Shown here one piece after another: positions 13,403 through 33,175 of a stretch of DNA of 64,000 nucleotides. The stretch comes from Flavobacteriales bacterium. Lineage in GTDB: Bacteria > Bacteroidota > Bacteroidia > Flavobacteriales_F > PHOS-HE28. The translations under genes and the position numbers were made by a program. The first letter of the stretch is position 1. Each line of letters starts with the position of its first letter. The stretch covers positions 85,829 through 149,828 of the forward strand of contig JAWKNG010000003.1 of NCBI GenBank assembly GCA_041391845.1, given 5' to 3'. The notes under the pieces were generated by a model. It had not been told where the DNA came from. It worked only from the letters and a program-made list of their open reading frames with translations, and ran no database searches.

Positions 13403-13581
13403 GGCGGTTCGGTATGTTGGACTTCGGACCCGCTGTTCCCATCCTCAGCGCTGGCAGGCGCCCGCTCGCACATGGCAGTGTGCTCGCGTAGGGATGATCA
13501 CAGGGGACCGGGGCCTTATACCCGGACCGCTGAGAAAGGGTTACGAAAAGGGGTGGAGTGGAAGGGTCCGCAGGCCGGACC

Positions 13582-16500: not shown

Positions 16501-19287
16501 ATCCGCGGCTTCGAAGGCAACGCTCAGACTGCACGGATCAAGGCTCGAAGTGCCGAACGAGGTGAACTGCACGTAGGCGTTGATGATCTGCGCACCCGGC
16601 GGAACCGCCACATTGGTGAAGCGGATGGCCACGACCTGATCGCCCCGCCAATCCGGAACCTCCCCATCGCGCACCAGGTCCAGAGCGTTCACGTTGGCAT
16701 AGATGTTCCCGTTCTCCCCTTCCTCACCGTCCGCGTTGAAGGGATCACCCGGGCTCACACAGAGCTGGCCCACGATGCAATCGTTGCTGCCGCCGCAAAC
16801 GCCACAGAGGTCCACCACCGCCGATCCACCGGGGATCCCATTGCAATCGACCGGCAGGCCGATGCACTGGCAATTGGCGCTCCAGGTGTCCGCGCCAGTG
16901 AGCGGGTTCCCGTCGTCGCAGGGCGTACCCGGAAGCGCAGTTCCCGCAATGGCGCCCAGACAATCCACCGGGGTGCCAACACACTGGCACGATGCCGACC
17001 AGGCATCGTTCACCGTGAGTGCGTTCCCATCGTTGCAGGGGCTGCCCGGCACCGCTGCGCCACCGGCCACGCTCAGGCAGTCATAGGGCAGGCCCACGCA
17101 CTGGCACTGAGCGTTCCATTGATCATTGCCGGTGTTGGGGTCACCATCGTTGCACGCGGAGCCCGGAAGCGCCGACCCGCCCACAACCCCGTTGCAGTCC
17201 ACTAACACACCCGCACACGCGCAGTTGCTGCCGATGACGTCGTTGACCGTGGATGCGTTCCCGTCGTTGCAGGGACTGCCGGGCTCGGGGTTACCGCACC
17301 CGCACTGGCCCGGAGCGGTCTTCAGCGGATCGCTGGGGCATCCGTCCTGTGCGTTGCACACGCCATCGCCATCGTTGTCAGGCAAGGGGGTGAAGATGCA
17401 CGTACCAGCTACGCAGTCATCGGAAGTGCAGGGGTTGCCATCCGAACAGGGTAATGGCGTCCCGATGCACTGGCAGTTCGCGTTCCACGTGTCGTTGGTG
17501 GTGCACAGGTTATTGTCGTTGCAGGGCGTGCCTGGCACCGCATTCCCATTGATCACACCCAGGCAATCCAGCGGCTGTGTTCCGAGGTTGATCTGGCCGA
17601 AGGAGCCCACGCTCAGGTTGAAGTACGATCCACTGGGCGTGGTCTCCAGCTTCAAGGCCCGCACCATGTAGCGCACCGTACCATTAAGGCCTGTGACATT
17701 GTCCACGTAGCCCGTCCCGGTCATAGCATTGGTGGTGCGCCGCTGCCAGGTCTGGGTGGAAGCGTTCCATCGGTATACATGGTAGCCCTGCACGGCCTCG
17801 GCCGCCGCGGTCCAGCCCACGTTCACCAGGGTGCTGTTCACCAGTGTGGGGTTCACGGCTCCCGGAGGCGCCACCATCCGCATCCGCAGCGTGGGGTCAC
17901 CCATGAGCGCCATGTGCACACGCCCGGCCTGTGGGTTGGCAGGCTCGTAGTGGTTGTTGCCGTTGTTCTGGCTGAGCACCGTGGAATAACCGATGGTCTC
18001 CCCCATGCCCATATGATGGAAGAACCAATTGGGATAGCCTGCCCAGAAGTTGGTAAGGGCACGGCCCGAAGCGAGCGGCGCGCGCAGGAAGTTGTTCTGA
18101 CTGTCCCAATCGCCGAAGTAACTTCCGAAGAGGATGGTGAAGACCGTCTGGATGTTGGTGGATGCGAACTGCGCGGTGGAACCCACCCCATTGGCATTGT
18201 CCCACCAGCCGCCCCCGCAACCATAGCTCCACACATAGCTCTGACCGCTCATGCTGGAGAAGTAGTCTGCGGCCACCACGTTGTTCGGGTTCACGAGCGG
18301 AGCGAAGCCGCGCCAGCCGTTCTGCGAGAACGCATCGCTGTAACCCGTGAAATTATCGTCCACCAAGGCACGCTCCTGGGCCGTGTACTGCTTGCGCTTC
18401 CATTGGCTGAGCTTGGTGAGGTAGTTGGCCAGCAGGGTGGTCTCGCTCTGCGGAAAGGTGGGCAGATCGGAGAGGTCCACCCGGCCCACGGCAAGTTCCA
18501 CCGAACTGGGTATGGTGGTCTGGTCGAACTTCCCATCGCCGGGCACATTGTGGTTGCGGGCCCAAGCTGCTGAAGTGCTCCACACGCTGGCGTCCGTCCA
18601 GCTGCCGTTCACGTCCCCGTAGTACACGTCCGCGCTCCATGCCCCGTAGTGCTCACCATGCCCGTCCGGAGCGAGGTTGCCACTGTACGGCACCGGCACA
18701 TGTCCGATGATCAGCACCGCCTTCACACGCGTGGGGTCCGCGTTGTAGGCGTTCACCACCAACGGCTTGATGGCACTGGGCTGGGCCGTGCGCGAGACAT
18801 CGTGCCGGACCACCTTCCAGCCGTCACCCTCCAGGTCCAGGACCAACTGTCCCAATTGGCTGGCCAGCGATGTGGTGAACGTATTGTCCACCAGCAGCAC
18901 CACGGTTCCGCGGTCCTCCACCATGGCCAGCTCGATGCCGGCGTTGATGTAGCCGAAGCCGTTGCCGTAATTGGCGGTGGTGCGCACCACCTTGTACTCG
19001 TACGAGGTGTTGAGCTGGACCGAGGCATCGCTGTACGACAGGGCGCCACCACCCAGCGTGGCGATGGCACTACCCCAGCTGGTCCCCCCCTTCAGCTTGC
19101 GGAAGATGGAGAAGCCGGTGGTATTGGGATGTGAACGCCAGTTCAGATCGATGCGGGGCGGAGCACTGCTGACCGTGGCCCACAGCTGCACGCTTCGGCT
19201 TTCGCCCAAGGTCTGGGCGTATGCCCCCAAGGCCCCGGCGATGAGCAGCGCGACAAGGAGGATGGAGCGAAGCAGGTGGTTCCGCAT
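13582..19287 (-). CDS. Giant T9SS type-A cargo, intact paralogue: signal peptide, Fn3-like, C25(gingipain)-like head, Fn3-like, about 24 diverged Cys-rich 39-aa modules with one inserted domain of about 190 aa, TSP3 repeats, Por_Secre_tail CTD
   Basis: Start moved from the track's 19539 to ATG 19287 (MRNHLLRSILLVALLIAGALGAYAQ is a signal peptide). Modules such as DCAGVPGGPAVPGTACDDGDPQTGNDTWGDDCTCAGLPL. C-terminal TSP3 DADGDGVLDCDDLCPQVNDP...DDDGNGVGDACD and CTD LLVMHPNPTNGHLRI...GTYLVVVQQRDGTLIGHGRIVKL. Confidence 0.85.
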   Translation of the reverse strand: MRNHLLRSILLVALLIAGALGAYAQTLGESRSVQLWATVSSAPPRIDLNWRSHPNTTGFSIFRKLKGGTSWGSAIATLGGGALSYSDASVQLNTSYEYKVVRTTANYGNGFGYINAGIELAMVEDRGTVVLLVDNTFTTSLASQLGQLVLDLEGDGWKVVRHDVSRTAQPSAIKPLVVNAYNADPTRVKAVLIIGHVPVPYSGNLAPDGHGEHYGAWSADVYYGDVNGSWTDASVWSTSAAWARNHNVPGDGKFDQTTIPSSVELAVGRVDLSDLPTFPQSETTLLANYLTKLSQWKRKQYTAQERALVDDNFTGYSDAFSQNGWRGFAPLVNPNNVVAADYFSSMSGQSYVWSYGCGGGWWDNANGVGSTAQFASTNIQTVFTILFGSYFGDWDSQNNFLRAPLASGRALTNFWAGYPNWFFHHMGMGETIGYSTVLSQNNGNNHYEPANPQAGRVHMALMGDPTLRMRMVAPPGAVNPTLVNSTLVNVGWTAAAEAVQGYHVYRWNASTQTWQRRTTNAMTGTGYVDNVTGLNGTVRYMVRALKLETTPSGSYFNLSVGSFGQINLGTQPLDCLGVINGNAVPGTPCNDNNLCTTNDTWNANCQCIGTPLPCSDGNPCTSDDCVAGTCIFTPLPDNDGDGVCNAQDGCPSDPLKTAPGQCGCGNPEPGSPCNDGNASTVNDVIGSNCACAGVLVDCNGVVGGSALPGSACNDGDPNTGNDQWNAQCQCVGLPYDCLSVAGGAAVPGSPCNDGNALTVNDAWSASCQCVGTPVDCLGAIAGTALPGTPCDDGNPLTGADTWSANCQCIGLPVDCNGIPGGSAVVDLCGVCGGSNDCIVGQLCVSPGDPFNADGEEGENGNIYANVNALDLVRDGEVPDWRGDQVVAIRFTNVAVPPGAQIINAYVQFTSFGTSSLDPCSLSVAFEAADDAPPLGFDPFNYSARPRTTALAWSPPAWSQANASTSAQRTVNLAPALQELVDRAGWVPGNSVVVLIDGTGRRSAWSSDQSSTRSPRLCIAYGQQPADCLGVPGGAALPGSPCDDGDATTGNDQWNSDCACVGLPLDCTGAPGGGALPGTPCDDGDATTGDDVYQADCQCAGLPLDCAGTPGGSLLPGTGCDDGQVLTVDDVLLEDCSCAGTWTGLDCAGVSGGAAMPGTPCDDGDATTGNDIWDAQCNCAGLPLDCAGVPGGASVPGSPCDDGNAATGNDTWGVDCTCSGLLIDCAGVVGGDSWPGSPCDDGDPNTGNDAYDASCTCVGQLIDCFGIPGGATLPGVECDDGNPQTVGDVWSADCVCTGLLLDCLDVPGGAALPGTPCDDGDPFTSEDAWTADCTCLGTPIDCLGIPNGSALPGSSCDDGDPFTTQDSWTANCLCEGLPVDCAGTINGAALPGTSCDDGDPGTALDTWTANCTCVGIPIDCNGVIGGPALPGSPCDDGDTATGNDVWQADCSCAGLPLDCAGVPGGPAVPGTACDDGDPQTGNDTWGDDCTCAGLPLDCAGTPGGEGLPGTPCDDGDPQTGNDVWGADCICAGLPLDCAGVPGGSAVPGTPCDDGDPHTGNDTWGADCTCAGLLLDCLGTPGGAALVGTACDDNDPGTGNDAWDADCNCVGIPFDCAGVVGGPALPGTPCDDGDPDTGNDVWTADCDCSGLPFDCLGVAGGGAVPGTPCDDGNPNTGNDVWTSSCTCTGQAFDCLNVAGGLALPGTPCNDGDPNTANDTWTIDCDCIGQAVDCAGVINGIAFIDGCGVCAGGTTGIPPNPDADGDGVLDCDDLCPQVNDPLQGDLDLDGIGDLCDNCPWVANPGQEDDDGNGVGDACDDIGIDELRDRSLLVMHPNPTNGHLRIAAELDQPGHVLFIDVLGALALQLPFTQVVDVRGLAPGTYLVVVQQRDGTLIGHGRIVKL

Positions 19288-19679
19288 GAAGGATGGCAAA
19301 TATACCCGCGCCGCATGCGCAGGTAAAGCCCCGAAGGGCCGCGCGACCCACTGGGAACCAGCCTGCATGCCCCTTTCAGGAATACCCGCCCGGGGCCCCC
19401 GGGCATCACGCGCTGAACGGACCAACATGACGCGCCGCAAGTAACGACGAATTATCAACACACACCCATGAATAGTCAAAGTCATTCGACGGACGCCAAG
19501 ATCCCTTACCTTCATGCGGCCAAATCCCGGTTCGAACATCTACGGACCGTTCGCGTATGAAGGATCCCTATCATGGGCTACTTGGGTCTCCACGAACATG
19601 GATGTCCGTCCCTGTCCCTACCGCAGGAACGGGTACGCTATGAAGTTGACCCTCAGCAATTAAGGAAAGGAACCACCGC

Positions 19680-22600
19680 ATGAAGAGCAGTATCATCGAC
19701 CACATCCTCTCCCAACTGGATCGTAACCCGGGCGCGCCCGCTTTGACCTCGAATGGCAATACGTGGGAGAACAAGGAACTGTGCGATCGTGTGCGCCGAC
19801 TGGCACACCGCCTTGGCGAACAGGGCATCGGTACGAACAGGACGGTGGGCATCTGCCTCGACCGCTCCCCCGAGCTCATCTTCGCCGTCCTCGGCATCGT
19901 CCAGTCCGGCGCCGCCTACGTGCCCATTGACCCCACCTACCCGGCGGAGCGTATCGCCGGCATGCTGGAGGACGCCACCCCCCCGGTGGTGATCACCAGC
20001 AAGGCGCACCAGCACCTGTTCCAAGGCACCAATGCCAAGGTCCTTCTCATCGAGGACATCGACCTGGAGAGTGGTCCCCAGTTCGAAGGCCCGTGCCCGG
20101 CCAAGGCCGAGGACCTGCTTTACGTGCTCTTCACCAGCGGCAGCACCGGCCGGCCCAAGGGTGTGGCCATGCACCATGCGCCGCTCACCAATTTGATCCA
20201 CTGGCAGCTGCGCACCAGCGTGTGCAAGGCCGGAGATCGTACCCTGCAGTTCGCGCCGATCAGCTTCGACGTCAGCTTCCAGGAGATCTTCACCACGTTC
20301 GCACAAGGCGGCACCTTGGTGCTGATCACCGATGAGGACCGCCTGAACAGCACGCAACTCCTGCGCAAGATCATCGCGCAGAAGATCAACCGCATCATCG
20401 TTCCCTTCGTGGCGCTGCAATACCTGGCCGAGGCCGTGGAACGCACGGGAGAAACGCCTTCCACGCTGAAGGAGGTCTTCACCAGCGGCGAGCAACTGAA
20501 GATCACGCCCGCCATTGCGAACCTCTTCAAGCAGTTGCCCGGCTGCCGCTTCTGCAACCAGTACGGCCCCACCGAAGGCCACGTGGTGAGCGAACTGGAA
20601 TTGAAGGGAGATCCGTCCACCTGGCCCGCATTGCCCAACATCGGCAGCGCCATCGACAACGTGAAGCTTTATGTGCTCGATGAGCAGATGAAGCCCGTTC
20701 CGACCGGTGAAGAAGGCGAGCTCTACCTCGGCGGCGCCTGCGTGGCAAAAGGCTACATCGGTCGCGATGACCTCACAGCGGATCGCTTCCTCGCGGATCC
20801 GTTCAACCCCGGTGGACGCCTTTACAGGACCGGCGACCGCGCTGCACTGTTGCCCAATGGCGAGATCGACTACAAAGGCCGCATCGATGGCCAGGTGAAA
20901 GTGCGCGGTTACCGCATCGAGCTGGGCGAAGTGGAGGTGGCCATGGAGAAGCATCCTGCCGTGGAGCAGGCCGTGGCCAACGTGCGCGAGGACCGTCCGG
21001 GGTTGAAACGCTTGATCGGCTACTATGTGGCGAAGTCGGATCTCAGCACCAACGAGCTCCGCAAGCACCTCGCCTCCCTCCTGCCTGACTACATGCAGCC
21101 TTCCGCCTTCGTGGCCGTGAAGGAGCTTCCCCGTACACCGAGCGGCAAGATCGACCGCAAGGCCCTGCCCGCGCCGGATGTGAAGCGCCCCGACCTCGAC
21201 GTGGCCTTCGCCGCACCGACGACCAGCGTGCAGAAGACCCTCGCCAACGTGTGGGCCGACCTGCTCGGCATCGACCGCGTGGGCATCGACGACAACTTCT
21301 TCGACCTCGGCGGCAATTCGCTCCTGAGCATCCAGTGCGTGGCGCAGCTCGAAGGCCACGGCTTGAAGCTGCCGATCGTTAAGCTGTACCAGCACCCGAC
21401 GATCCGTGCATGCGCAGCATTCCTGGAAGGGGATGCGGCCGGCACTTCACCTGCTGAAATGGCTAAGGCGCGCTTAGGGGCGCGTCACAACGCGCCCGGT
21501 ACGCGCGCCGACGTGGCCATCATCGGCATGAGCGGTCGCTTCCCCGGCGCAGAGAACGTGGAGCAACTCTGGCAGAACCTGCTGGCGAAGAAGAACAGCA
21601 TCAGTACGTGGACGGTGGATGAGCTTGACCCGAGCATCCCTGCCGAACTGCGCAACGACCCCGACTATGTGAAGGCCCGTGGTGTGATCACCGATGCCGA
21701 CAAGTTCGACCACGGCTTCTTCGGAGTGAATCCCAAGGTGGCGGCGTTGATGGACCCGCAGCAACGCGTGTTCCTGGAGACCGCCTGGGCCGCGCTGGAG
21801 GATGCCGCCTACGACCCCGCGCAGTTCGCGGGACTGATCGGCGTGTACGCCGGCATGGGCAACAACACCTACTTCACGCGCAACGTGATCGGCCACCCCG
21901 AGCTCATCGAGCAGGTCGGCGACTTCGCGGTGATGACGGCCAACGAGAAGGACTACATCGCCACGCGGCTCGCCTTCGAGTTCGACCTGCGTGGTCCGGC
22001 GCTGAGCATCCACACCGCATGCAGCACCTCGCTCGTTGCGATCGCACAAGCGTTCAAGGCGCTGCGCGATGGCGAATGCGACATGGCCTTGGCCGGTGGC
22101 ATCGCGCTCACGGTGCCCTTCAACAGCGGCATCGTCTACAACGAAGGCGGCATGTACAGCCCCGACGGCAGCACGCGCACCTTCGACGCCAACGGCAAAG
22201 GCACCAGCTTCAGCGACGGCTGCGGCATCATCGTGCTGAAGCGCCTCGACGATGCGGTGCGCGACAAGGATCATGTGTATGCCGTGATCAAAGGCGCCGC
22301 GCTGAACAACGACGGCAGCGACAAAGCCAGTTTCACCGCACCCAGCGTGCGTGGCCAGGCCGAAGTGATCGCCATGGCACAGGCCGATGCAGGCGTGAGC
22401 CCGAGCGAGATCACCTATGTGGAAACACATGGTACCGCGACACCGCTCGGCGATCCGATCGAGGTGGAGGCGCTGACGCTCGCGTTCGGCGGCAAGACCA
22501 ACGGGCACCACTGTGTGATCGGCTCCATCAAGAGCAACATCGGTCACCTGACGCCCGCCGCCGGTGCCGCCGGTGTGATCAAGACCGCACTGGCGCTGCG

Positions 22601-25600
22601 GGAGGAAGTGATCCCGGCGAACGTGGGCTTCGAGACCCCGAACCCCGCGATCGATTTTGCGAACTCGCCCTTCAGGGTATTGACCGAGAGCGAAGCCTGG
22701 CCGCGTGTGCCGGGCACCCCGCGCATCGCCGGCGTGAGCAGCTTCGGTGTGGGTGGCACCAACGCGCACGTGATCCTCGCGGAGCCGCCGGTGGCCGTTG
22801 CCTCCAGCGCTTCGCGCGAGAAGCAACTCTTCCTGCTCAGCGCGAAGAGCAAGGCCAGCCTGGATGCCATGACGGAAAATCTCCGCACCTGGCTCGAAAC
22901 GCATCCGAAGGCTTCCCTGGCGGATGCCGCCTACACATTGCAAGTGGGCCGTCGTCACTTCAAGCACCGCCGCCTGATCGTAGGCGGAAGCCATGCCGAA
23001 GTGATCGAAGCGATCGCCAACAAGGACACCAACCTGATCGGTACGCGCGAACTCCACGAGGCCGCGCCCGGCGTGGTGTTCATGTTCCCCGGCCAGGGTT
23101 CACAGTACATCAACATGGGCCGCGACCTCTGCGCGAGCGAGCCGGTCTTCAAGGAGCACTTCGACCGTTGCTGCGAGCTCTTCTCGAAGGAGTTCGGCAC
23201 CGACCTCAAGGCCATCATCTTCCCGAAAGCCGGTGAAGAGGAGAAGGCTGCCGAGCAACTGAAGCAGACGATCTACACGCAGGCCTCGCTCTTCACCATG
23301 CACTACAGCCTCGCAAAGCTGTGGATGCACTGGGGCATCGTGCCCGACGCGATGATGGGCCACAGCATCGGTGAATTCGCTGCGGGCTGTCTGGCCGGTG
23401 TGTTCTCCCTGGAGGATGCCGTGAAGCTCGTGGCGAACCGCGGCCGCATGATGCAGGACCTGCCCGGCGGCAGCATGCTCAGCGTGCGTGCGGCGGAAGA
23501 GGATGTGCTGAAGAAACTCCCCGCCGGGTGCAGCATCGCCGCGAACAACGGTCCGCAGTTGTGCGTGGCCAGCGGTCCGCATGAAGCCATCGCCAAGCTG
23601 CAGGCGGAGCTGGAGAAGGACGGCATCACCTGCAAGCTGCTCGTGACGAGCCACGCTTTCCACAGCCCCATGATGGACGCCATCGTGGAGCCTTACAAGA
23701 AGGTGGTGGAGAGCGTGAAGCTCAGCGCGCCGCGCATCCCGATCGTGAGCACCGTCACCGCCGAATGGCTGAAGGACGACGAGGCGACCTCACCGAAGTA
23801 CTGGAGCGATCACCTGCGCGCCACCGTGCGTTTCGCACAGGCCGTGAAGTTCGCATGGGCCGATGCGGACCGTGTCATGCTCGAGGTGGGTCCGCGCACG
23901 ACGGCGACCACGCTCGCGCGCCAGCAGAGCACCGACAACAAGAAGCAAGCGGCCGTGCCCTCGCTGGGCGATTCCGCTGGCAACGGCAATGAGCTCACGC
24001 AACTGCTGAAGGCTGTTGGTGGCCTGTGGCAGAGCGGCGTGCTCATCGACTGGAGCAAGTTCTATGAGCGTGAAGAGCGTTGCCGCATCTCGATGCCGAC
24101 CTACGCCTTCGAGCGCATCCGTCACTGGGTGGACCCCGTGGCGATGGTGGCCGATGGTGGTCGTGCCATCGCCAGCACCACGATCGAAGCGCCGGTGCCG
24201 AACAGCGGCGATGCGAACCGTTCACCGAAGGAATCGCTGATCGCGCAGATCAAGCACCTGCTGGAGGAAAGCAGCGGCCTTGAACTGGCGGAGGCCAGCA
24301 ACGAGGAGACCTTCCTCGAGATGGGCCTCGACTCGCTCTTCCTGACGCAGGTCGCGACCTCGTTGAGCAAGAAGTTCGGCGTGAAGATCTCGTTCCGTCA
24401 ATTGAACGAGGAGCTGCCGAACCTGGACAAGCTGGCGGACCATATCCTGCCGCATTGGTCTCAAGGTCCCACGGGCGTCCCCGCTCGTGGCGAAGCCAAG
24501 GCCACCGGCAAGAATGCCGGTGGAACATTGAACGCCCTGGAAGACGCACCGGAATTGAAGAAGGTCTTCGGTGCACAAGCGCGCATCGTGAAGGAGAAGG
24601 TGGACGACATGACACCGCAACAGCGCGCCTGGTTCGATGCCTTCGTGAAGCGTTACGTGGCGAAGACCGCGAAGAGCAAGGCCTTCACCCAGGAGAACCG
24701 CAAGCCGATGGCCGACCCGCGCGTGGTCACCGGCTTCAAGCCGCAGACCAAGGAGCTCATCTACCAGGTGGTGGTGGACAAGAGCGTGGGCTGCCACCTC
24801 TGGGACATCGACGGCAACGAGTACGTGGACATCCTCAGCGGCTTCGGTTCCTCGATGTTCGGCTACATGCCCGACTTCATCAAGGAGGCCGTACACAAGC
24901 AGGTGGACACCAGCGTGGAGATCGGCCCCATGCATCCGCTCGCAGCCGAAGTCTCGAAGCTCCTCTGCGAGCTGACCGGCGCCGAACGTGCCGCCGTGTG
25001 CAACACCGGTTCCGAAGCGGTGCTCGGCGCGATGCGCATGGCCCGCACCGTGACCGGCCGCAGCCTGATCATCTCCTTCAGCGGCAGCTATCACGGCATC
25101 AACGATGAAGTGATCATCCGCGGTAGCAAGAGCAAGAAGAGCTATCCCGGCGCGCCCGGGATCATGCCCGAGGCCGTGCAGAACATGCTCGTGCTCGACT
25201 ACGGCACGCCCGAAAGCCTTGAGATCATCAAGCAGCGTTGCCACGAAGCAGCGGCCGTTCTCGTGGAGCCGGTGCAAAGCCGCCGCATGGAGTTCCGCCC
25301 CGTGGACTTCCTGCGCGAGGTGCGCCGCATCACCCAGGAGAACGGCACCGCGCTGATCTTCGATGAGGTGATCACCGGCTTCCGCACACACCCCAACGGC
25401 ACGCAGGCCCTCTTCGGCATCCAGGCCGATATCGGCACGTATGGCAAGGTGATCGGCGGTGGCATGCCCGTGGGCGCCATGATCGGCAAGAGCGAATGGA
25501 TGGACGCCCTCGATGGTGGCCATTGGCAGTACGGCGATGACAGCGTACCCCCCGCTGGTGTGACCTACTTCGCCGGCACCTTCGTGCGCCATCCCCTGAC

Positions 25601-26147
25601 GCTGGCCGCCATGAAGGCAGCACTGGTGTACATGAAGAACGAAGGCCCCGCCTTGCAGGAGCGCCTCAACACCATCACCGAGGACATGGTGACCCGCGTG
25701 AACGGCCTCTTCGACCAGTACCAGCTCCCCTACCGCTGGGTGAACTTCGGCAGCGCGTTCAAGACCAAGTACGACGAGAGCGTCAACTACACCGAGCTCT
25801 TCTTCATGCTGATGCGCTACCATGGTGTACACGTGCTGGACTTTCCGCACTTCATCACCACGGCGCATACCGCGGCCGACATCGAGTTCATCATCAGCGC
25901 AGTGGAGAAGACCTGCAAGGAGCTGCGCGAAAGCGGCTTCATGCCGGAGCGCACCTACCCGATCCCTGTGGTGAACAGCGTGCTGGGCAACAGCGTGCGC
26001 CGCGCATCGGAACGTGTGATGAGCGCGCTCGAAGCCCCGCTTCCGGGTGCGCGCCTCGGCCGCAGTGCCAAGGGCGAACCGGCCTGGTTCGTGCCGGATC
26101 CCGACCGCGCTGGCAAATACCTGCAGATCGACATCGAAGAACGTTGA
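19680..26147 (+). CDS. Hybrid NRPS-PKS megasynthase: A - PCP - KS - AT - ACP - class-III aminotransferase (AMT)
   Basis: 2155 aa. A domain: LFTSGSTGRPKGV, FDVSFQE, NQYGPTE, YRTGDRA, GRIDGQVKVRGYRIELGE, PSGKIDR. PCP: FFDLGGNSL (Ser codon about 21318). KS: IHTACSTS (Cys about 22020), ETHGTATPLGDP, NIGHL. AT: FPGQGSQ, GHSIGE (Ser about 23364), HAFHS. ACP: LGLDSL (Ser about 24333). AMT: CNTGSEA, FDEVITGFR, YGKVIGGGMP (Lys about 25446). No KR, DH or ER motifs between AT and ACP. Confidence 0.95.
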   Translation: MKSSIIDHILSQLDRNPGAPALTSNGNTWENKELCDRVRRLAHRLGEQGIGTNRTVGICLDRSPELIFAVLGIVQSGAAYVPIDPTYPAERIAGMLEDATPPVVITSKAHQHLFQGTNAKVLLIEDIDLESGPQFEGPCPAKAEDLLYVLFTSGSTGRPKGVAMHHAPLTNLIHWQLRTSVCKAGDRTLQFAPISFDVSFQEIFTTFAQGGTLVLITDEDRLNSTQLLRKIIAQKINRIIVPFVALQYLAEAVERTGETPSTLKEVFTSGEQLKITPAIANLFKQLPGCRFCNQYGPTEGHVVSELELKGDPSTWPALPNIGSAIDNVKLYVLDEQMKPVPTGEEGELYLGGACVAKGYIGRDDLTADRFLADPFNPGGRLYRTGDRAALLPNGEIDYKGRIDGQVKVRGYRIELGEVEVAMEKHPAVEQAVANVREDRPGLKRLIGYYVAKSDLSTNELRKHLASLLPDYMQPSAFVAVKELPRTPSGKIDRKALPAPDVKRPDLDVAFAAPTTSVQKTLANVWADLLGIDRVGIDDNFFDLGGNSLLSIQCVAQLEGHGLKLPIVKLYQHPTIRACAAFLEGDAAGTSPAEMAKARLGARHNAPGTRADVAIIGMSGRFPGAENVEQLWQNLLAKKNSISTWTVDELDPSIPAELRNDPDYVKARGVITDADKFDHGFFGVNPKVAALMDPQQRVFLETAWAALEDAAYDPAQFAGLIGVYAGMGNNTYFTRNVIGHPELIEQVGDFAVMTANEKDYIATRLAFEFDLRGPALSIHTACSTSLVAIAQAFKALRDGECDMALAGGIALTVPFNSGIVYNEGGMYSPDGSTRTFDANGKGTSFSDGCGIIVLKRLDDAVRDKDHVYAVIKGAALNNDGSDKASFTAPSVRGQAEVIAMAQADAGVSPSEITYVETHGTATPLGDPIEVEALTLAFGGKTNGHHCVIGSIKSNIGHLTPAAGAAGVIKTALALREEVIPANVGFETPNPAIDFANSPFRVLTESEAWPRVPGTPRIAGVSSFGVGGTNAHVILAEPPVAVASSASREKQLFLLSAKSKASLDAMTENLRTWLETHPKASLADAAYTLQVGRRHFKHRRLIVGGSHAEVIEAIANKDTNLIGTRELHEAAPGVVFMFPGQGSQYINMGRDLCASEPVFKEHFDRCCELFSKEFGTDLKAIIFPKAGEEEKAAEQLKQTIYTQASLFTMHYSLAKLWMHWGIVPDAMMGHSIGEFAAGCLAGVFSLEDAVKLVANRGRMMQDLPGGSMLSVRAAEEDVLKKLPAGCSIAANNGPQLCVASGPHEAIAKLQAELEKDGITCKLLVTSHAFHSPMMDAIVEPYKKVVESVKLSAPRIPIVSTVTAEWLKDDEATSPKYWSDHLRATVRFAQAVKFAWADADRVMLEVGPRTTATTLARQQSTDNKKQAAVPSLGDSAGNGNELTQLLKAVGGLWQSGVLIDWSKFYEREERCRISMPTYAFERIRHWVDPVAMVADGGRAIASTTIEAPVPNSGDANRSPKESLIAQIKHLLEESSGLELAEASNEETFLEMGLDSLFLTQVATSLSKKFGVKISFRQLNEELPNLDKLADHILPHWSQGPTGVPARGEAKATGKNAGGTLNALEDAPELKKVFGAQARIVKEKVDDMTPQQRAWFDAFVKRYVAKTAKSKAFTQENRKPMADPRVVTGFKPQTKELIYQVVVDKSVGCHLWDIDGNEYVDILSGFGSSMFGYMPDFIKEAVHKQVDTSVEIGPMHPLAAEVSKLLCELTGAERAAVCNTGSEAVLGAMRMARTVTGRSLIISFSGSYHGINDEVIIRGSKSKKSYPGAPGIMPEAVQNMLVLDYGTPESLEIIKQRCHEAAAVLVEPVQSRRMEFRPVDFLREVRRITQENGTALIFDEVITGFRTHPNGTQALFGIQADIGTYGKVIGGGMPVGAMIGKSEWMDALDGGHWQYGDDSVPPAGVTYFAGTFVRHPLTLAAMKAALVYMKNEGPALQERLNTITEDMVTRVNGLFDQYQLPYRWVNFGSAFKTKYDESVNYTELFFMLMRYHGVHVLDFPHFITTAHTAADIEFIISAVEKTCKELRESGFMPERTYPIPVVNSVLGNSVRRASERVMSALEAPLPGARLGRSAKGEPAWFVPDPDRAGKYLQIDIEER

Positions 26148-26184
26148 ACCCGACACCTGCGCTCTCCCTCGCAGGACCGCCGAA

Positions 26185-29100
26185 ATGGAACGATTCATTC
26201 CCTCCATCATCCGAACACCGGTCGACCACGACCCCTTCGCTGGGCCTACCATTGAGCAGACTATCCCCACCACCGAGGCCCAACGCGAGGTCTTCGTGGC
26301 CAGCGAAATGGGTGTGGAGGCCAGCTGTGCCTACAACGAGAGCGTCACCCTCGAACTCAGCGGCACCCTCGATCGCACCGCCATCGCCACGGCCGTGCAG
26401 CAGCTCGTGGACCGTCATGTGGCCCTGCGTTCCACCATCAGCCCCAGCGGCACCCGCATGGTGGTACAGCAGCAGCTCTCCATCGACCTGCCCTTCACCG
26501 ACCTCAGCACGCTGCCCGTCACCGAGCGACCCGCCGCCTGGGAAGCCTTGACGCGGCAGGATATGACCACGCCGTACGACCTGCGCAACGGTCCGCTGTT
26601 CCGCACCCGCCTGGTGAGGATGGATGCTGACACGCACATGCTGCGGCTGGCCGGCCACCACATCGTCTGCGATGGCTGGAGCCTGGGCATCATGATGGCC
26701 GAGGTCAGCGCACTCTACAATGCCGCACGCACCGGAAGTGCAGCTTCGTTGCCGCCCGCCGTACCGTACGGCGACTACAGCCTCGCCACCATCGACATCG
26801 CCAAGTCGCCGGAGCAGGCACGCATCGAACAGTACTGGACCAGCCAGTTCAAAGGGCCGCTCCAGCGCATGGACCTGCCCACCGACCGGCCGCGTCCGAA
26901 GCAGAAGACCTTCCGGGGCGAGCGCATCGACCTGGAGATGCCGCCGGAACTGGTGCGCGGGCTCAAGGAAGTGGCCACCCGCACCGGCGCCAGCTTCGTC
27001 ACCACGCTGCTCACCACCTTCGAACTGCTCCTGCACAAGCTTACGGGCAACACCGACCTGGTGGTGGGCCTGCCTGCTGCGGGCCAGAGCGATCTGGACA
27101 TGAAGCACCTGGTGGGGCATTGCGTGAACCTGCTCGCCCTGCGCAGCCGCATCGATGACGAGCGGCCCTTCGCTGAACACCTGAAGGAACGCCGCACCGC
27201 CGTGCTCGATGCCTTCGACAACCAGAAGTACACCTTCGGCACACTGCTGCGCACCCTGAACATTCCGCGCGAACCCGGACGCATCCCACTGGTGCCTGTG
27301 GTGTTCAACATCGACATGAACATGGACGATGGGGTGGCCTTCGATGGGCTGCACCACCGCTTCCACAGCGACCCGCGCGCCTTCGAGAACTTCGAGCTCT
27401 TCCTCAACGCCACCGGCAGCGAGCAGGGACTGGTGCTCGAATGGAGCTTCAACACCGACCTCTTCGATGCGGGAACGGTGCGCGGCTGGATGGACCAGCT
27501 GCTGCTCCTGGTGCAGCGCATCATCGCAGCACCGCAGGCCAGCCTCGCCGAACTGGTGGGCGATGAACCCATCGACCAGGAGGTGGTGATGCCTTCCACG
27601 CAATGGGAAGGTCGCTCCACCATGTACCCGCGCAGCGACGTGGGCAGCGTGTTCCGCGAGGTGGCCACGGCCCATGCGACCAGCACGGCGCTGATCCTCG
27701 GCGACCAGCAGCTGGACTACCGCAGCCTGGCCGAACGCGTGGATGCCGCGGCCATGGCCCTGGTGGCGCGTGGTGTGCAGCCCGGTCGACCGATCGGCAT
27801 CTGCATGGAACGCAGCTTCGACATGGTGGTGGGCATGCTCGCCATCCTGCGCAGTGGTGCGTGCTTCGTGCCCTTCGATCCCGCGTACCCCGCCGAGCGC
27901 ATCGCGTTCATGCTGGAGGATACCGGTGTGGACCTCGTGCTGGTGCAGGACCACCTGCGCGACAGCCTACCCCCCACCGCGCACACCACCACGCTCGCCC
28001 AGCTTGCTCCGGCCACCGCACCGCTGCCCACCATCGCTCCGGAAGCCCCCGCGTACATCATGTACACCAGCGGAAGCACCGGTACGCCAAAGGGTGTCGT
28101 AGTGCCCCATCGCGCCATCCTGCGCCTCGTGCGGGAACAGAACTTCCTGCCCTTCGGCCCGGAGCTGACGTTCCTGCAACTCTCCAACACCTCCTTCGAT
28201 GCCTCCACGCTGGAGATCTGGGGCGCGCTGCTGAACGGTGGTCGCCTCGTGCTGCAACCGCAGACCAAGCCCACCCTGCTGGAGATCACCGAGAGCATCC
28301 GTACGCACAAGGTCACCACGGTATGGTTCACCGTGGGGCTCTTCAACCTGCTGGTGGATGAGCACCTTGACAAGTTGCGCGGGTTGAAGCACATCCTCAC
28401 CGGTGGTGATGTGCTCAGCGTTCCGCACGTGAAGAAGGCCCTCGCCGCGCTGGGTCCCGGTGTGCTCATCAATGGCTACGGCCCCACGGAGAACACCACC
28501 TTCACCTGCTGCTACCCCATCAATGACGCGGCCGGCATCAAGACCAGCGTACCCATCGGCTTCCCGCTGAACAACACCACCGTGCATGTGCTCGACGAGC
28601 AACTGCAACCCGTGGGCGTGGGTCGCAAAGGCGAACTGTACACCGGCGGCGATGGCGTGGCCCTGGGCTATTGGAAGCGTCCCGAGCTGAACGCCGAACG
28701 CTTCATCGACGACCCCTTCATCAGCACCCCCGGCGCCAAGCTCTACCGCACCGGCGACCTCGTGCGCTGGCAGCCCGATGGCAGCATCGAGTTCATCGGT
28801 CGCGCGGACGGACAGGTGAAGGTGCGCGGCTTCCGGGTGGAGCTGGGCGAGATCGAGAACGCCATCGCGGAAGTGCCCGGCGTGAAGGACCGGGTGGTGG
28901 TGCTGCGCCAGGATACGCCGGGCGAGAAGCAGCTCGTGGCCTACCTCGTGGCCCACTCAGCACCGGCGCCCGAGGACCAGAGCGCGCTGATCGCCAGCGT
29001 GCGCATGCAGTTGCGCGACCAGCTGCCCGAATACATGGTGCCCACCGCCTTCGTGGTACTACCCGAACTGCCGCTGACCCCCAACGGCAAGGTGGACCGG

Positions 29101-30123
29101 CGCGCCCTGCCCGCACCGGAGTTCCGTCAACAGCTGATGCGCGCCGAACACGTGGCGCCGCGCGACCCCGTGGAGCGCGAACTGGCCGCCATCTGGCGTA
29201 CTGCCCTGAAGGTGGACAGCATCGGCATCCACGACAACTTCTTCGACCTGGGCGGTCACTCCCTCATCGGCATCCAGGTGCTCGGTCAGGTGGAACAGCA
29301 CTTCGGTCGCAGCCTGCCGCTAAGCGCCTTGTTCGAGGCTCCCACCATCGCCGAGTTCGCGCGGGGCCTGCAGGTGGACGGGGCCGGCAGCCGGTGGAAG
29401 AACCTCTCCTCCATCCAACCCATCGGTGACCGTGCGCCCCTCTTCTGCGTGCATGGCGACGAGGCCAACCACTTCATTCCGCGCTACCTCGGCAGCGCGC
29501 ATCCCTTCTACGCCTTCTTCCACCAGGGCGAGGATGGCCGCGCCATCGAGCACCAGAGCGTGGAGGCCATTGCAGCCCACTTCATCCACGAACTGAAGCA
29601 GGCGCGACCCGAAGGACCGTACCTGCTGTGCGGCTACAGCTTCGGCGGCATCGTGGCCTATGAGATGGCGCAACAGTTGCGCAAGGCCGGTGATGACGTG
29701 CCGATGCTGGTGGTGTTCGACACCTACGCTCCGCGCCTGCACGCCGCCGCGGTGGCGAGCGACCGCAAGTTCTATGAACCCGTGAAGAACGCCGTGTACC
29801 GCGGCCTCATCGCACGCGATCTGGCCCGTGGCAAGGTGCTGTCGCCACGCCTGCGGCACTTCCACATCATCGACACCTACGACAGGGCCGTGATGGCCTA
29901 TCGCCCCGCACCGATGGACGGGCCGCTCACCGTGTTCAAAGCCCGCGAAAGCTGGGGCGCCGAGGACATGGGCTGGAAGGAGCTCGCGCCCGATGTGGAC
30001 GTGCATGTGCTGCCCGGCGACCACTACAGCATGATCAAGGAGCCCCATGTGAAAGAGCTGGTGAAGGTGCTGGCGGGCTGCATGGACAAGGCCTTGCTGC
30101 GCCACGCCGTGGAGGCAGTGTGA
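26185..30123 (+). CDS. NRPS termination module: C - A - PCP - TE
   Basis: Start moved to ATG 26185 (MERFIPSII). C: HHIVCDGWS (26656..26676). A: YIMYTSGSTGTPKGV, FDASTLE, NGYGPTE, YRTGDLV, PNGKVDR. PCP: FFDLGGHSL (Ser about 29260). TE: GYSFGG (Ser about 29638) and GDHYSM. Confidence 0.95.
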   Translation: MERFIPSIIRTPVDHDPFAGPTIEQTIPTTEAQREVFVASEMGVEASCAYNESVTLELSGTLDRTAIATAVQQLVDRHVALRSTISPSGTRMVVQQQLSIDLPFTDLSTLPVTERPAAWEALTRQDMTTPYDLRNGPLFRTRLVRMDADTHMLRLAGHHIVCDGWSLGIMMAEVSALYNAARTGSAASLPPAVPYGDYSLATIDIAKSPEQARIEQYWTSQFKGPLQRMDLPTDRPRPKQKTFRGERIDLEMPPELVRGLKEVATRTGASFVTTLLTTFELLLHKLTGNTDLVVGLPAAGQSDLDMKHLVGHCVNLLALRSRIDDERPFAEHLKERRTAVLDAFDNQKYTFGTLLRTLNIPREPGRIPLVPVVFNIDMNMDDGVAFDGLHHRFHSDPRAFENFELFLNATGSEQGLVLEWSFNTDLFDAGTVRGWMDQLLLLVQRIIAAPQASLAELVGDEPIDQEVVMPSTQWEGRSTMYPRSDVGSVFREVATAHATSTALILGDQQLDYRSLAERVDAAAMALVARGVQPGRPIGICMERSFDMVVGMLAILRSGACFVPFDPAYPAERIAFMLEDTGVDLVLVQDHLRDSLPPTAHTTTLAQLAPATAPLPTIAPEAPAYIMYTSGSTGTPKGVVVPHRAILRLVREQNFLPFGPELTFLQLSNTSFDASTLEIWGALLNGGRLVLQPQTKPTLLEITESIRTHKVTTVWFTVGLFNLLVDEHLDKLRGLKHILTGGDVLSVPHVKKALAALGPGVLINGYGPTENTTFTCCYPINDAAGIKTSVPIGFPLNNTTVHVLDEQLQPVGVGRKGELYTGGDGVALGYWKRPELNAERFIDDPFISTPGAKLYRTGDLVRWQPDGSIEFIGRADGQVKVRGFRVELGEIENAIAEVPGVKDRVVVLRQDTPGEKQLVAYLVAHSAPAPEDQSALIASVRMQLRDQLPEYMVPTAFVVLPELPLTPNGKVDRRALPAPEFRQQLMRAEHVAPRDPVERELAAIWRTALKVDSIGIHDNFFDLGGHSLIGIQVLGQVEQHFGRSLPLSALFEAPTIAEFARGLQVDGAGSRWKNLSSIQPIGDRAPLFCVHGDEANHFIPRYLGSAHPFYAFFHQGEDGRAIEHQSVEAIAAHFIHELKQARPEGPYLLCGYSFGGIVAYEMAQQLRKAGDDVPMLVVFDTYAPRLHAAAVASDRKFYEPVKNAVYRGLIARDLARGKVLSPRLRHFHIIDTYDRAVMAYRPAPMDGPLTVFKARESWGAEDMGWKELAPDVDVHVLPGDHYSMIKEPHVKELVKVLAGCMDKALLRHAVEAV

Positions 30124-30881
30124 CCATGGACGGCGCGCACCAGGACCTCCACCTGTACTGCCGCGGACCGCTGCCCGCTGCGGTGGGGCAATGGACCGGA
30201 GGTGCGCCTCCCCACGGACATGTCCATGTACACGTGGCCACCATCGCCGCGCTCCGCGCCCGCACCGAGGCCTACCTGCACACGCTCGACACGGAGGAAC
30301 TGGCGCGCCATGAGCGCTTCCGCTTCGCGGCCGACCGCGAGCGCTTCCTGCTGGCACACGGGCTGCTGCGCGACCTGCTGGGCCGCTACCTGGGGCTGGA
30401 ACCGGCGGCGTTGCGCTTCGCGCGTGGTGCGCATGGCAAGCCCTACCTGCACGGCGTTCCGCTCCACTTCAACCTCAGCGATACGAAGGATGCCATGGCG
30501 CTGGCGGTGGCCCATGCACCGCTCGGCCTCGACCTGGAGACCATGGGCCGCACCGTGGACCACCTGGCCGTCGCCGCCCACTACTTCACCGCCGAAGAGC
30601 AGGCCGACATCAACGCTGCCACCGATGCCAAACGGCGCTTCCTGGAACTGTGGACCCGCAAGGAAGCCGTGCTGAAGGCCAGTGGTGTCGGCATCATGGA
30701 CGACCTCAAGGTGTTGCGTGTGGACCTACCGTACCAAGCGATGCGCATCGCACATCCCGCCTTCCGCGCCCTGGCCGATGCCCAGTACCACGTTCACACC
30801 TGGCACCTGGGCGCCGATCATCTGCTGAGCGTGGCCAGTGCGCTGGAGCCCGCGGCTGTGGCGGTGTTCGGAGAGGAGTGA
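30120..30881 (+). CDS. Sfp-type 4'-phosphopantetheinyl transferase
   Basis: About 250 aa. FNLSDTKD and WTRKEAVLKASGVG motifs. The GTG at 30120 overlaps the NRPS stop by 4 nt; ATG 30126 is an alternative start. Confidence 0.85.
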   Translation: MTMDGAHQDLHLYCRGPLPAAVGQWTGGAPPHGHVHVHVATIAALRARTEAYLHTLDTEELARHERFRFAADRERFLLAHGLLRDLLGRYLGLEPAALRFARGAHGKPYLHGVPLHFNLSDTKDAMALAVAHAPLGLDLETMGRTVDHLAVAAHYFTAEEQADINAATDAKRRFLELWTRKEAVLKASGVGIMDDLKVLRVDLPYQAMRIAHPAFRALADAQYHVHTWHLGADHLLSVASALEPAAVAVFGEE

Positions 30882-30885
30882 ACCC

Positions 30886-32366
30886 TCACTCCACCACCAC
30901 CCTTGCCTGCCACCGCTGCCCATCGCGCGCCTCCACCAGCAGCAGGTACGTACCCGCCTCCGCAGTGGTGCTCAGGGGTTGCTGCTCCGCGCCACTGGGC
31001 AGCGTGTAGTGCTGCACCACCCGCCCGCTGGCATCCAGCAGCCGGGCCTGAGCGGGGCCGAGGTCGGCAGGCAAGGATAGAGTGAATTGGCCGCTGTTAG
31101 GGTTGGGTGCAACACGCACCGTTGCCTGCACTGGCGCAGTGGCATCAGACACCGCCGTGGTCAGGTCCGGCCCGTACAACCGGGTGATGAAGCGTTGGTC
31201 AGTATCGTTGGTGGTACCGTCGGTGTAGCCGTGAAACGTTCCGTAGACGTAGAGCATGTTGTCGGGGGTGAAGTGGACACCCGAAACGCCACCGAGGACC
31301 TGCCCCTGATAGACATAGGTGCCCACACCAGCGCCGCTGAACTCGGGCATGAGCGTGCCAGTGCTGTCCACCACGCAAAGTCCGAAGCGTGGTTCGCCAT
31401 TCACCTGTTGAAAGGTGCCAGTGACCAAGTAGCGCCCCCCCGGCCAATGGTCGATCGAGTTGGGGATGACACCGAGGTCCAGGTAGTTCGGGATCGTACC
31501 CAGACCGAAGGTGATGGTTTGGTCAAAGGAGGTATCCAGCTCCCCGTTGCCCAATAGCCTTGCCATGCGCATCGTATCGCCGGGCAGGTCATCCAAACCG
31601 AATCTGCCGACCACTACGATCCGGGTATCTTCCAGTACCAGGAACTCACTGACACGACCCCATGCCACCTCCGGATCGAAGCTGGTATCCAAGGCCCCAT
31701 CGGCATGCACCCGAAAGACACGGCGCACGGGTTGGCCTTCATAAGTGCTGCACGTACCACTGCACAGGAACTTGCCATCGGGCTGCTGCTCGATCTCGTA
31801 GATCACCCCGTTGCAGTAGCGGTGGGTCTTGGTGGTATCCAAGTGCCCGGTGTTGGTGAACCAGATAAGGTTGTAGATGCCCACGTAGCCCGCGCCGTGT
31901 CGTACAGGCTGTGCGCACCGCTCATCAGAATGCTGCCGTCCGGGTAGACGTGGTAGTCGCCGCCTTGGAGGGAGCTAAAAAGTGTCTGCGTGCTCATAGC
32001 GATGAAGTCGTAATCGATCTCGCCATCCAAGTAAAGTCGCCTAACTGCCTGCCCCACCTCAACGTACAATCGATCTCCCCACCTTCTGATAGTGCCACCT
32101 CCTATACCATTCGTAGCAAAATCAAAATCTCGATCGCCGTTCGGAAGAAAGCGCATCATGTTCTTGAAATTCAGATCATTTCCGAATTTCATTTTCCCAG
32201 AGGCCAGAAGACTTCCATCATCCAATGGAAGAATGCTGCTTACATACCATGTGTTAAAGTCGCATCCGAAGGATACATCCAATGACAACGGTGCTTGAGC
32301 GACCAACATCATGTGAAGCATCGCTCCTGTCGCCAGCGCGACCATTCGTTTCGCGAGCGTCCGCAT
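30886..32366 (-). pseudogene. Delta-60-repeat-like beta-propeller T9SS cargo, copy 1, split by one frame break
   Basis: Track ORFs 31803..32417 (start taken at 32366, MRTLAKRMVALATGAMLHMMLVAQA) and 30886..31884 together are colinear with the intact paralogue 33176..34660. The break is at the CCC run 31889..31891. One extra G/C would read ..DTARGYVGIYNLIWFTNTG.. as in copy 2 (..DTARGFVGLYNLIWFTNTG..). A type-A CTD lies at the 3' end. Confidence 0.7.
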
Positions 32367-33152
32367 CACTGTACGATCAGACGATCGGTCTTCAGTGCCC
32401 CTGCATCCGTGATGCATTCAACCGTGTAGGTGCCCTTGGACAGCTGACGCGCGTCCAGCACCACTTGGCCTTGCCTGCCTGCAAAACGCTCGGTGAGTAG
32501 TACTCTCCCAGCGATGTCTTTTACGAGGATCCTTCCATTCGCAGGCTCATCCAGCAGGAAGAAGGTCAATGTTGTCCAGGTTTGTGCCGGATTCGGTGCC
32601 AGCGTGATCATGTTCTCCTCTGGCGACCGCGTGGCGTTTGGAGGCTCCCGCAAACTCTTATCGCCGCCTACCTCCCCCTCCCGTTCGTGGTGGCCTGCAA
32701 TGTTCGTAGTACACGCACAGCAGGTTACTGATCCAGTTCGCAGCACGGTCGTACTGCCCGTCGCTCAGGGCCTTCAACTGGTTCACCTCGGCCGTGGTCA
32801 ATTCGTGGGCCGCACGACCGGCGTTGGCTGCGTTCTGCAGCAAGGTGATGTAGTCCAGCATCCGGAAGCGCTCCAGTTGTTCCGGGCTGCGCAAGTCGTG
32901 CTCCTGCGGGATACTGCTGATACCATCCCGACATGCAATACCAGCCGATCTGCTTGCCTTCTTTCCGCATGCCTTCTCCGCGGAACAGGTTCCGTAGACC
33001 CCGCTACGCAGCCTGTTCCGCGTATCGTCCTCCGAAAAGAATGCCGCGCATCTCTTGGCCGGTCTTGCATGTCGGGATGGTATTACCACGCTGTGCGCCT
33101 CGCTGTAGTTGCCTTGGCAGTCGCGCGCTGTGGTAAAAGTCAAGCTGGTCAT
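32366..33152 (-). pseudogene. Small protein with conserved helical N-part and a type-A T9SS CTD, copy 1, split by one frame break
   Basis: ORF 32658..33203 (start taken at ATG 33152) ends ..NLLCVYYEHCRPPRTGGGGRRR*. ORF 32366..32746 continues in another frame, ..EREGEVGGDKSLREPP..ITLAPNPAQTW..DRLIVQ. Copy 2 (34657..35226) has both parts in one frame. The break lies in the G-rich tract about 32670..32690. The stop overlaps the downstream start (TGATG). Confidence 0.55.
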
Positions 33153-33175
33153 GATACTGAAGTTACACCAATCCA

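Follow-up and report, generated by a model that had tools for sequence, protein, structure and literature searches.

A three-gene NRPS–PKS–aminotransferase cassette from Flavobacteriales predicted to join a proline-like starter, malonate and valine

We analysed a 64,000-nucleotide stretch of DNA from a Flavobacteriales bacterium (contig JAWKNG010000003.1, positions 85,829 to 149,828; hereafter, the window), in which an initial annotation had recognized a compact cluster combining nonribosomal peptide synthetase (NRPS) domains, polyketide synthase (PKS) domains and an aminotransferase. Our analysis suggests that this cluster is probably a functional, self-contained cassette of three genes, which would join a proline-like starter, a malonate unit (with its keto group replaced by an amine) and valine. 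Gene 1 encodes adenylation (A), peptidyl carrier protein (PCP), ketosynthase (KS), acyltransferase (AT), acyl carrier protein (ACP) and aminotransferase (AMT) domains; gene 2 encodes condensation (C), A, PCP and thioesterase (TE) domains; and gene 3 encodes a 4′-phosphopantetheinyl transferase (PPTase). If so, this would be a minimal β-transamination line of ~11 kb, primed by an amino acid, probably proline, and equipped with its own PPTase. We propose only tentatively a stronger version, which may well prove wrong: that the product is a pyrrolidinyl-β-alanine (a vicinal diamine) joined to valine, a scaffold of which we found no description, possibly closed to a 1,4-diazepane-2,5-dione, and that it is made lineage-wide, under selection, in uncultured, high-GC Flavobacteriales that are abundant in activated sludge.

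The predicted assembly line

The domain order assigned to the three genes by the initial annotation was the same in the Pfam matches and in the translations, and the catalytic motifs that it quoted were all present. Across the three genes, the Pfam E-values ranged from 1e-15 to 1e-84, so that chance domain matches are not at issue. Within gene 1, they were 1.5e-70 for AMP-binding, 1e-68 and 8e-41 for the N- and C-terminal ketoacyl-synt families, 3e-53 for Acyl_transf_1 and 5e-49 for Aminotran_3; PP-binding was matched twice, and the KS–AT linker families were matched as well. All three open reading frames (ORFs) are uninterrupted, with every catalytic residue or motif intact.

The A3, A4, A5, A7, A8 and A10 core motifs are readable in both A domains. 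In the starter A domain (A1), we read TSGSTGRPK, FDVS, NQYGPTE, YRTGD and PSGKID, and the domain scored above the cutoff of NCBIfam TIGR01733. Because D235 and K517 are present, A1 should be an α-amino or imino acid domain, as had been proposed, and not a fatty acyl-AMP ligase (FAAL). The specificity codes of A1 and of the second A domain (A2) were read from an alignment of these two domains in which the core motifs served as anchors. The canonical proline code is DVQLIAHVVK, and the A1 code, DVQIFSQVVK, is identical to it at six of the ten positions (D, V, Q, V, V and K). When the A1 pocket segment alone was compared with PDB sequences, the top matches were the proline-activating domains TycB1 (9bfd_B) and GrsB1 (8p5o), with the following ones ~20 bits lower. 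We regard the predicted starter substrate as proline-like, a description under which the code fits proline itself and an analogue alike. The logic of bestatin and TAN-1057, in which a non-amino acid starter, malonate and an AMT yield a β-homo-amino acid, was also considered; it was ruled out, since A1 keeps D235 and is proline-like.

The KS carries the motifs HTACSTS, HGTAT and NIGH, and its catalytic triad (C781, H917 and H956) was invariant in the homologue alignment. The AT has the HAFH signature on which its assignment to the malonyl type had been based. When residues 1428–1697 were scanned against Pfam at a lenient threshold (E up to 1), PP-binding alone was found, with no hidden ketoreductase (KR), dehydratase (DH), enoylreductase (ER) or methyltransferase (MT), in agreement with the earlier view that reductive domains are absent. 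Since the interval between AT and AMT lacks KR, DH and ER, a β-keto thioester should reach the AMT. The ACP–AMT segment matched the structures of the MycA AMT (6KFU and 6KFM) over ~450 residues at ~55% identity (E 1e-132), whereas glutamate-1-semialdehyde aminomutases were far weaker matches among PDB sequences (1e-49). Its motifs are FDEVITGFR and YGKVIGGGMP, the latter containing the lysine K1923 that would bind pyridoxal phosphate (PLP). Both K1923 and the aspartate D1895 align with their MycA counterparts (MycA motif 'tygkiiggg'), so that the active site, on which the initial prediction of a β-amine had hinged, is MycA-like. The AMT of gene 1 is thus predicted to be a MycA-type in-line β-keto transaminase.

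For A2, the initial annotation had extracted by hand the code DALWLGGTFK and called it valine-type. A search of PDB sequences with the A2 pocket segment alone ranked PA1221 (4DG8) first, with nine of nine pocket positions identical, and PA1221 activates valine (PMC8857579); the pocket can accordingly be assigned a valine code by sequence. The C domain of gene 2 is 40–45% identical to the C domains that follow AMTs in other phyla and 23–33% identical to the second C domains of those same loci; its subtype (LCL, DCL or hybrid) was not resolved, the PDB sequence matches being generic. Gene 3 matched PF01648 (ACPS) and PF22624 (AASDHPPT_N) and contains WTRKEAVLKA, and thus has both the two-lobed architecture and the W/F-x-x-KE-A/S motif of Sfp-type PPTases. 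Against the NCBIfam HetI model it scored 1.4e-30, which is below the curated cutoff, and none of the three proteins had an NCBIfam equivalog above cutoff. In most related loci, a PPTase adjoins the cassette (tblastn).

Following collinear assembly-line logic and the precedent of MycA, we envisage that all three carrier domains are primed by the Sfp-type PPTase and that A1 charges the first PCP with L-proline or a closely similar cyclic imino acid. The malonyl-specific AT would load the ACP, and condensation by the KS would give 3-oxo-3-(pyrrolidin-2-yl)propanoyl-S-ACP, whose β-keto group, in the absence of reductive domains, would be turned into a β-amine by the PLP-dependent AMT. The C domain of gene 2 would then couple the β-aminoacyl thioester to valyl-S-PCP, and the TE would release 3-amino-3-(pyrrolidin-2-yl)propanoyl-valine. 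The linear product would be C12H23N3O3 (monoisotopic mass 257.174; [M+H]+ 258.181) and a lactamised one, should the TE cyclise it, C12H21N3O2 ([M+H]+ 240.171). Release could occur by hydrolysis, by closure of a 7-membered lactam through the β-amine or by closure of an 8-membered lactam through the ring nitrogen; cyclisation to a diazepanedione, raised in the initial annotation as speculation, is still speculation. The 3,4-diamino-acyl-valine predicted there stands in outline, and its starter, previously unspecified, is refined here to a proline-like one, such that the acid becomes pyrrolidinyl-β-alanine with the 4-nitrogen inside the ring. Four points are inferred: which starter is used, whether this substrate is transaminated, how the product is released and what biological role it has.

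Conservation and distribution of the cassette

Close homologues of gene 1, at 78–92% identity, were found in at least 120 metagenomic proteins. All of these have the same precomputed Pfam architecture, and those that bear a name are labelled 'MAG: Flavobacteriales bacterium' (MAG, metagenome-assembled genome). The A1 code, read at eight positions (all but 278 and K517), is identical in the window and in 119 of 120 close homologues. A survey of MAGs describes NRPS–PKS hybrid clusters as typical of activated-sludge Flavobacteriales (PMC9765116).

Three close loci were compared with the window: L001 (CP064979.1, a 4.48-Mb Flavobacteriales MAG), L002 (a 766-kb ENA contig) and L008. L001 and L002 keep the three genes in the window's order, with a divergent large cargo gene of the type IX secretion system (T9SS) upstream and a RecD/PIF1-type helicase downstream. 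Amino acid identity to L001, L002 and L008 was 84%, 79% and 91% for gene 1, 61–63% for gene 2, 42–54% for the PPTase and 62–67% for the flanking helicase. Codon comparisons with L001 and L002 gave dN of 0.11–0.16 and dS of 0.75–0.99 for gene 1, and dN of 0.28–0.34 and dS of 1.0–1.2 for gene 2 and the helicase. The resulting dN/dS of ~0.15 for gene 1, against ~0.29 for gene 2 and the helicase, with dS near saturation, indicates that gene 1 is under markedly stronger purifying selection, and we take this ratio, at dS of 0.75–1.0, to argue that the gene is active and selected. Recent horizontal transfer of gene 1 was considered as the cause of its conservation and is ruled out by the same dS values. 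The 2155-residue megasynthase is the most constrained gene of its neighbourhood, exceeding both its operon partners and the flanking helicase.

Although gene 2 has diverged, the window, L001, L002 and L008 agree in its A2 code, in the serine and histidine of the TE and in its N-terminus. Since the A1 and A2 codes are unchanged, the clade appears, as far as these codes indicate, to make one and the same product.

How common such proteins are was judged from a search of 1.84 billion cluster representatives with the ACP–AMT segment. The search returned many proteins of ~2150–2300 residues with the AMT at the C-terminus, among them one from the cultured Echinicola arenosa (WP_192007873.1). When AMT-terminal representatives of 1950–2400 residues were inspected, 41 of 52 began with an NRPS-type A domain (D235 and K517), and 23 of these 41 starters had a DVQ-type code, three of them the exact proline code DVQLIAHVVK. 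From these counts, KS–AT–ACP–AMT proteins primed by amino acids, especially of the proline type, are common in sequence space, contrary to the initial statement that they are uncommon.

A pattern scan used one genome per GTDB species; its taxonomic picture is a sample and not a census. Among the matches listed, full-length ones came from the cultured Pedobacter sp. PAMC26386, P. westerhofensis, P. agri and Pedobacter sp. MC2016-15, from the other cultured Bacteroidota Mucilaginibacter pankratovii and Spirosoma lacussanchae, and from the cultured Lysobacter concretionis, Marilutibacter spongiae, Xenophilus azovorans and Pseudoxanthomonas; further matches lay in MAGs or draft genomes of Nostoc, Microcoleus, Aulosira, Planctomycetota, Myxococcota and Verrucomicrobiota. 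Domain strings of Bacteroidota loci were reconstructed by tblastn, with T denoting a carrier domain. The string A-T-KS-AT-T-AMT / C-A-T-TE / PPTase was matched in L001–L003, L008 (5′ end cut), L011, L015, L027, L029, L030 and L036, and L057 has it without a detectable TE. In proteobacterial and cyanobacterial relatives, two or more NRPS modules follow. On this comparison, the cluster is a member of a widespread cassette family and not a unique orphan. Because the cassette is conserved across a wastewater lineage that is abundant and uncultured, and occurs also in Pedobacter, Mucilaginibacter and Spirosoma, which can be cultivated, it is an easy target for heterologous expression, and a product assignment would cover the whole gene-cluster family.

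Starter codes vary within the family: DVQIFSQVVK in the window, DVQIMAQVVK in Pedobacter, DVQIIAHVVK in L027 and, among non-DVQ starters, DAVIIAMVAK in Mucilaginibacter and DAEQIGEVAK in P. agri. Three Pedobacter loci (L003, L011 and L029) have DVQIMAQVVK in both A domains. In L003, a gene for an FkbM-family methyltransferase (L003 9178–9921) overlaps the start of gene 1, and the window has no such gene; apart from this FkbM-type gene in Pedobacter, no further conserved neighbour was found in a comparison of Pedobacter and Mucilaginibacter. Three Burkholderiales loci (L017, L025 and L037, from Variovorax, Lautropia and Xenophilus) have the string A(Val-like)-T-KS-AT-T-AMT / C-A-T-C-T / PPTase; the C-T pair that stands in place of the TE implies that release there follows another logic. 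In module 2 of L030, L018, L032 and L034, whose hosts are Spirosoma, Flavipsychrobacter, Chitinophagaceae and one Pedobacter MAG, A and PCP are spaced by ~2.7 kb instead of 1.5 kb, which suggests that an additional domain, for example an N-methyltransferase, is inserted in A.

Known systems and alternative readings

The closest precedent for the proposed transamination is MycA/ItuA of mycosubtilin and iturin A, in which KS, ACP, AMT and C follow one another, as they do here, and a PLP-dependent aminotransferase aminates an ACP-bound β-keto thioester before condensation. Gene 1 likewise has an Aminotran_3 domain with PLP lysine and aspartate after the ACP, a KS with Cys-His-His, and an ACP without KR, DH or ER; a C domain comes next downstream, in gene 2, 37 nt after gene 1. 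The two systems differ in what is loaded and in where the chain goes. In MycA, a FAAL loads a long-chain fatty acid, and the chain passes to a lipopeptide line that builds a heptapeptide, whereas the window system has a proline-like NRPS-type A primer nearest to the TycB and GrsB proline domains, an AT in cis, and, in place of the seven NRPS modules that make the cyclic lipoheptapeptides of the iturin family, a single valine module (C-A-PCP-TE) with its TE on a separate protein. An in-line class-III aminotransferase likewise follows a non-reducing PKS extension in the McyE/NdaF (Adda), microginin and puwainaphycin modules (PMC4219810, PMC2885083). These cyanobacterial KS-AT-ACP-AMT modules share this enzyme with the window but act on polyketide or fatty-acyl substrates, not on an aminoacyl starter, and belong to much larger lines.

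Two further likenesses are more limited. RedL/PigH of prodiginine biosynthesis has a superficially similar order, A-CP-KS-AT-CP followed by a PLP domain (CP, carrier protein). That domain is an α-oxoamine synthase (Aminotran_1_2, PF00155; PMC3870968) that forms a C–C bond, whereas the PLP domain of gene 1 is PF00202, with no PF00155 match in Pfam. PA1221 of Pseudomonas aeruginosa (4DG8/4DG9) shares the pocket DALWLGGTF with A2, but it is a stand-alone A-PCP didomain from an unrelated, uncharacterised pathway.

Judged from sequence, the nearest relatives of the window cassette are uncharacterised Bacteroidota cassettes. The six-domain layout of gene 1, which the initial annotation did not recognize as described, had in fact been tabulated in 2013 for C6XWU5 of Pedobacter heparinus, likewise a member of the Bacteroidota: A-CP-KS-AT-CP-Aminotran_3, predicted to make 'Nrp-Mal-Gly', with no product given (Milano et al., Table 2, PMC3870968). 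Moreover, the whole cassette recurs in many Bacteroidota genomes and MAGs. Related Pedobacter genomes (L003, L011, L029 and L036) have the same three genes. The identity is ~45–48%, and several Pedobacter cassettes differ from the window in having DVQIMAQVVK in both A domains and the FkbM-type methyltransferase gene before gene 1.

In-line β-transamination is documented mainly on fatty-acid and polyketide chains (iturins, microcystin and microginins). The enzymology proposed here is a recombination of known parts and leaves the current assembly-line rules unchallenged; it bears on whether MycA-type AMTs accept α-amino-β-keto substrates, yielding vicinal diamines. If the prediction is true, the pseudodipeptide with its vicinal diamine would count as a new small scaffold, and, as pure speculation, a small diamine carboxylate of this kind could be a metal binder or an aminopeptidase inhibitor.

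Several observations weigh against the proline–malonate–valine assignment. A1 has I278, F299, S301 and Q322 where the proline code has L, I, A and H. Because of these four pocket differences, the starter could be an analogue of proline or some other small amino acid, and the same assembly logic would then give a different 3,4-diamino-acyl-valine. We consider this unlikely but worth keeping in sight, with pipecolate, hydroxy- or methyl-proline and azetidine-2-carboxylate as candidate analogues. Q322 is common to many relatives (DVQLIAQVVK, DVQIMAQVVK), which suggests a distinct specificity subgroup, and none of six exact DVQ-type code strings, DVQIFSQVVK included, was found in the searchable literature. 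Yet the pocket of A1 is clearly nearest to the two solved proline domains, and close family members carry the exact proline code.

A change of fate at the next step seems improbable. γ-Amino thioesters readily give five-membered lactams, and the β-aminated, or still β-keto, prolyl-malonyl intermediate, a γ-amino thioester with a free ring nitrogen, could lactamise before condensation, which counts against the proposed product; the scaffold would be 1-amino-pyrrolizidin-3-one or pyrrolizidine-1,3-dione, and the valine module would be non-canonical or bypassed. The ring nitrogen is unprotected, A1 beginning at residue 12 with no N-acylating starter C domain before it, and two Microcoleus relatives do have a C domain preceding their DVQ-type A domain. 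However, all four of the clade members compared retain, alongside gene 1, the C-A-PCP-TE partner with its valine code, and the C domain comes from a group that consistently follows AMT domains; from these two facts we argue that the module of gene 2 is used canonically in the proposed valine coupling.

Also to be weighed is that no transporter, regulator or resistance gene is attached to the cassette, and we found no characterised product for any cassette-family member in the full-text literature; a characterised match beyond the searchable literature is possible. Searches on the domain string surfaced a microcystin review alone, those combining vicinal diamines with AMTs only unrelated systems (carenaemin, flavipulchrin and ichizinone), and those on bestatin or amastatin gene clusters and on Pedobacter or proline with AMT nothing relevant. 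The absence of an adjacent regulator and transporter, together with hosts that are mostly uncultured, would also suit a decaying or silent remnant without a product. We give this very little credence, as against it stand intact catalytic residues in unbroken ORFs, dN/dS of 0.15–0.29 with near-saturated dS, and retention of the cassette in the at least 120 related metagenomic proteins.

Gene layout and neighbourhood

The coordinates of the three genes and their domains are collected in Table 1. The initial annotation had described the genes as co-directional and tightly packed, with a 38-nt gap and then a 4-nt overlap. The direction and the packing hold, but the gap between gene 1 and gene 2 is 37 nt, counted to the in-frame ATG at 26185 (MERFIPS...). 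The 4-nt overlap between gene 2 and gene 3 holds only with GTG 30120 as the start, and an alternative start, ATG 30126, lies two codons downstream.

Table 1 Predicted genes, domains and other features of the cassette in the window
Feature	Position	Strand	Description	Basis
Gene 1	19680..26147	+	Hybrid NRPS-PKS, 2155 aa, A-PCP-KS-AT-ACP-AMT plus C-terminal tail	Pfam, translation
Starter A domain (A1)	19713..21149	+	aa 12-490 (AMP-binding and AMP-binding_C); code DVQIFSQVVK	Pfam, translation, pocket alignment
PCP1	21237..21425	+	aa 520-582; serine in LGGNSL	Pfam, translation
Ketosynthase	21510..22631	+	aa 611-984; catalytic C781, H917, H956	Pfam, translation
Acyltransferase	23076..23963	+	aa 1133-1428; GHSIG and malonyl-type HAFH	Pfam, translation
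ACP2	24246..24446	+	aa 1523-1589; serine in GLDSL	Pfam, translation
Class-III aminotransferase (AMT)	24588..25949	+	aa 1637-2090; predicted MycA-type	Pfam Aminotran_3 PF00202 (aa 1696-2055), MycA match
Conserved C-terminal tail	25950..26144	+	aa 2091-2155, ~65 residues; consensus PPVxGARLGxDxxGxPAWFxxDPxRPGKY	Homologue alignment
Gene 2	26185..30123	+	NRPS termination module, 1312 aa, C-A-PCP-TE	Pfam, translation
Condensation domain	26254..27555	+	HHIVCDG	Pfam, E 1e-84
Second A domain (A2)	27652..29091	+	Code DALWLGGTFK (Val)	Pfam E 2e-81, alignment
PCP3	29179..29364	+	Serine in LGGHSL	Pfam, translation
Thioesterase domain	29446..30066	+	GYSFGG and GDH conserved	Pfam, E 4e-22
Gene 3	30120..30881	+	Sfp/HetI-type 4′-phosphopantetheinyl transferase	Pfam ACPS and AASDHPPT_N

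Gene 1 ends in a conserved tail beyond the AMT. The 101 residues of aa 2055–2155, comprising the end of the AMT and the tail, had no Pfam match in the lenient scan (E up to 1). By tblastn, the tail was found mostly, with exceptions, where the spacing between AMT and C is ~200 nt longer, as in separate proteins, and it was absent from all loci with a shorter, apparently fused spacing. On the strength of this distribution, we infer that the tail may be where the gene 1 protein docks with that of gene 2.

The flanking genes encode T9SS cargo, as the initial annotation had noted; Por_Secre_tail, CHU_C, TSP_3 and DUF5122 were all found by Pfam. Upstream, the minus strand at 5871–19539 encodes a series of secreted proteins of very large size that contain thrombospondin type-3 repeats. 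The one at 5871–7451 additionally carries a T9SS sorting tail, and another, a protein of 1985 residues (13582–19539), is divergent from gene 1; L001 and L002 have large T9SS cargo genes at the same position. Farther downstream of the cassette lie an MsbA-like ABC exporter (42879–44687, 12 kb away) and a stand-alone AMP-binding enzyme resembling acyl-CoA ligases (49778–51508, 19 kb away), both of which are probably unrelated to it, because synteny with the cassette in related loci is lacking for both.

A block of lower GC content (30886–35226, minus strand; 0.57 versus ~0.64) separates the PPTase from the RecD/PIF1-like helicase (35230–36687) and contains three to four T9SS cargo genes with DUF5122 β-propellers and Por_Secre_tail. 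Since the helicase directly follows the PPTase in L001, L002 and L008, this block looks like an insertion.

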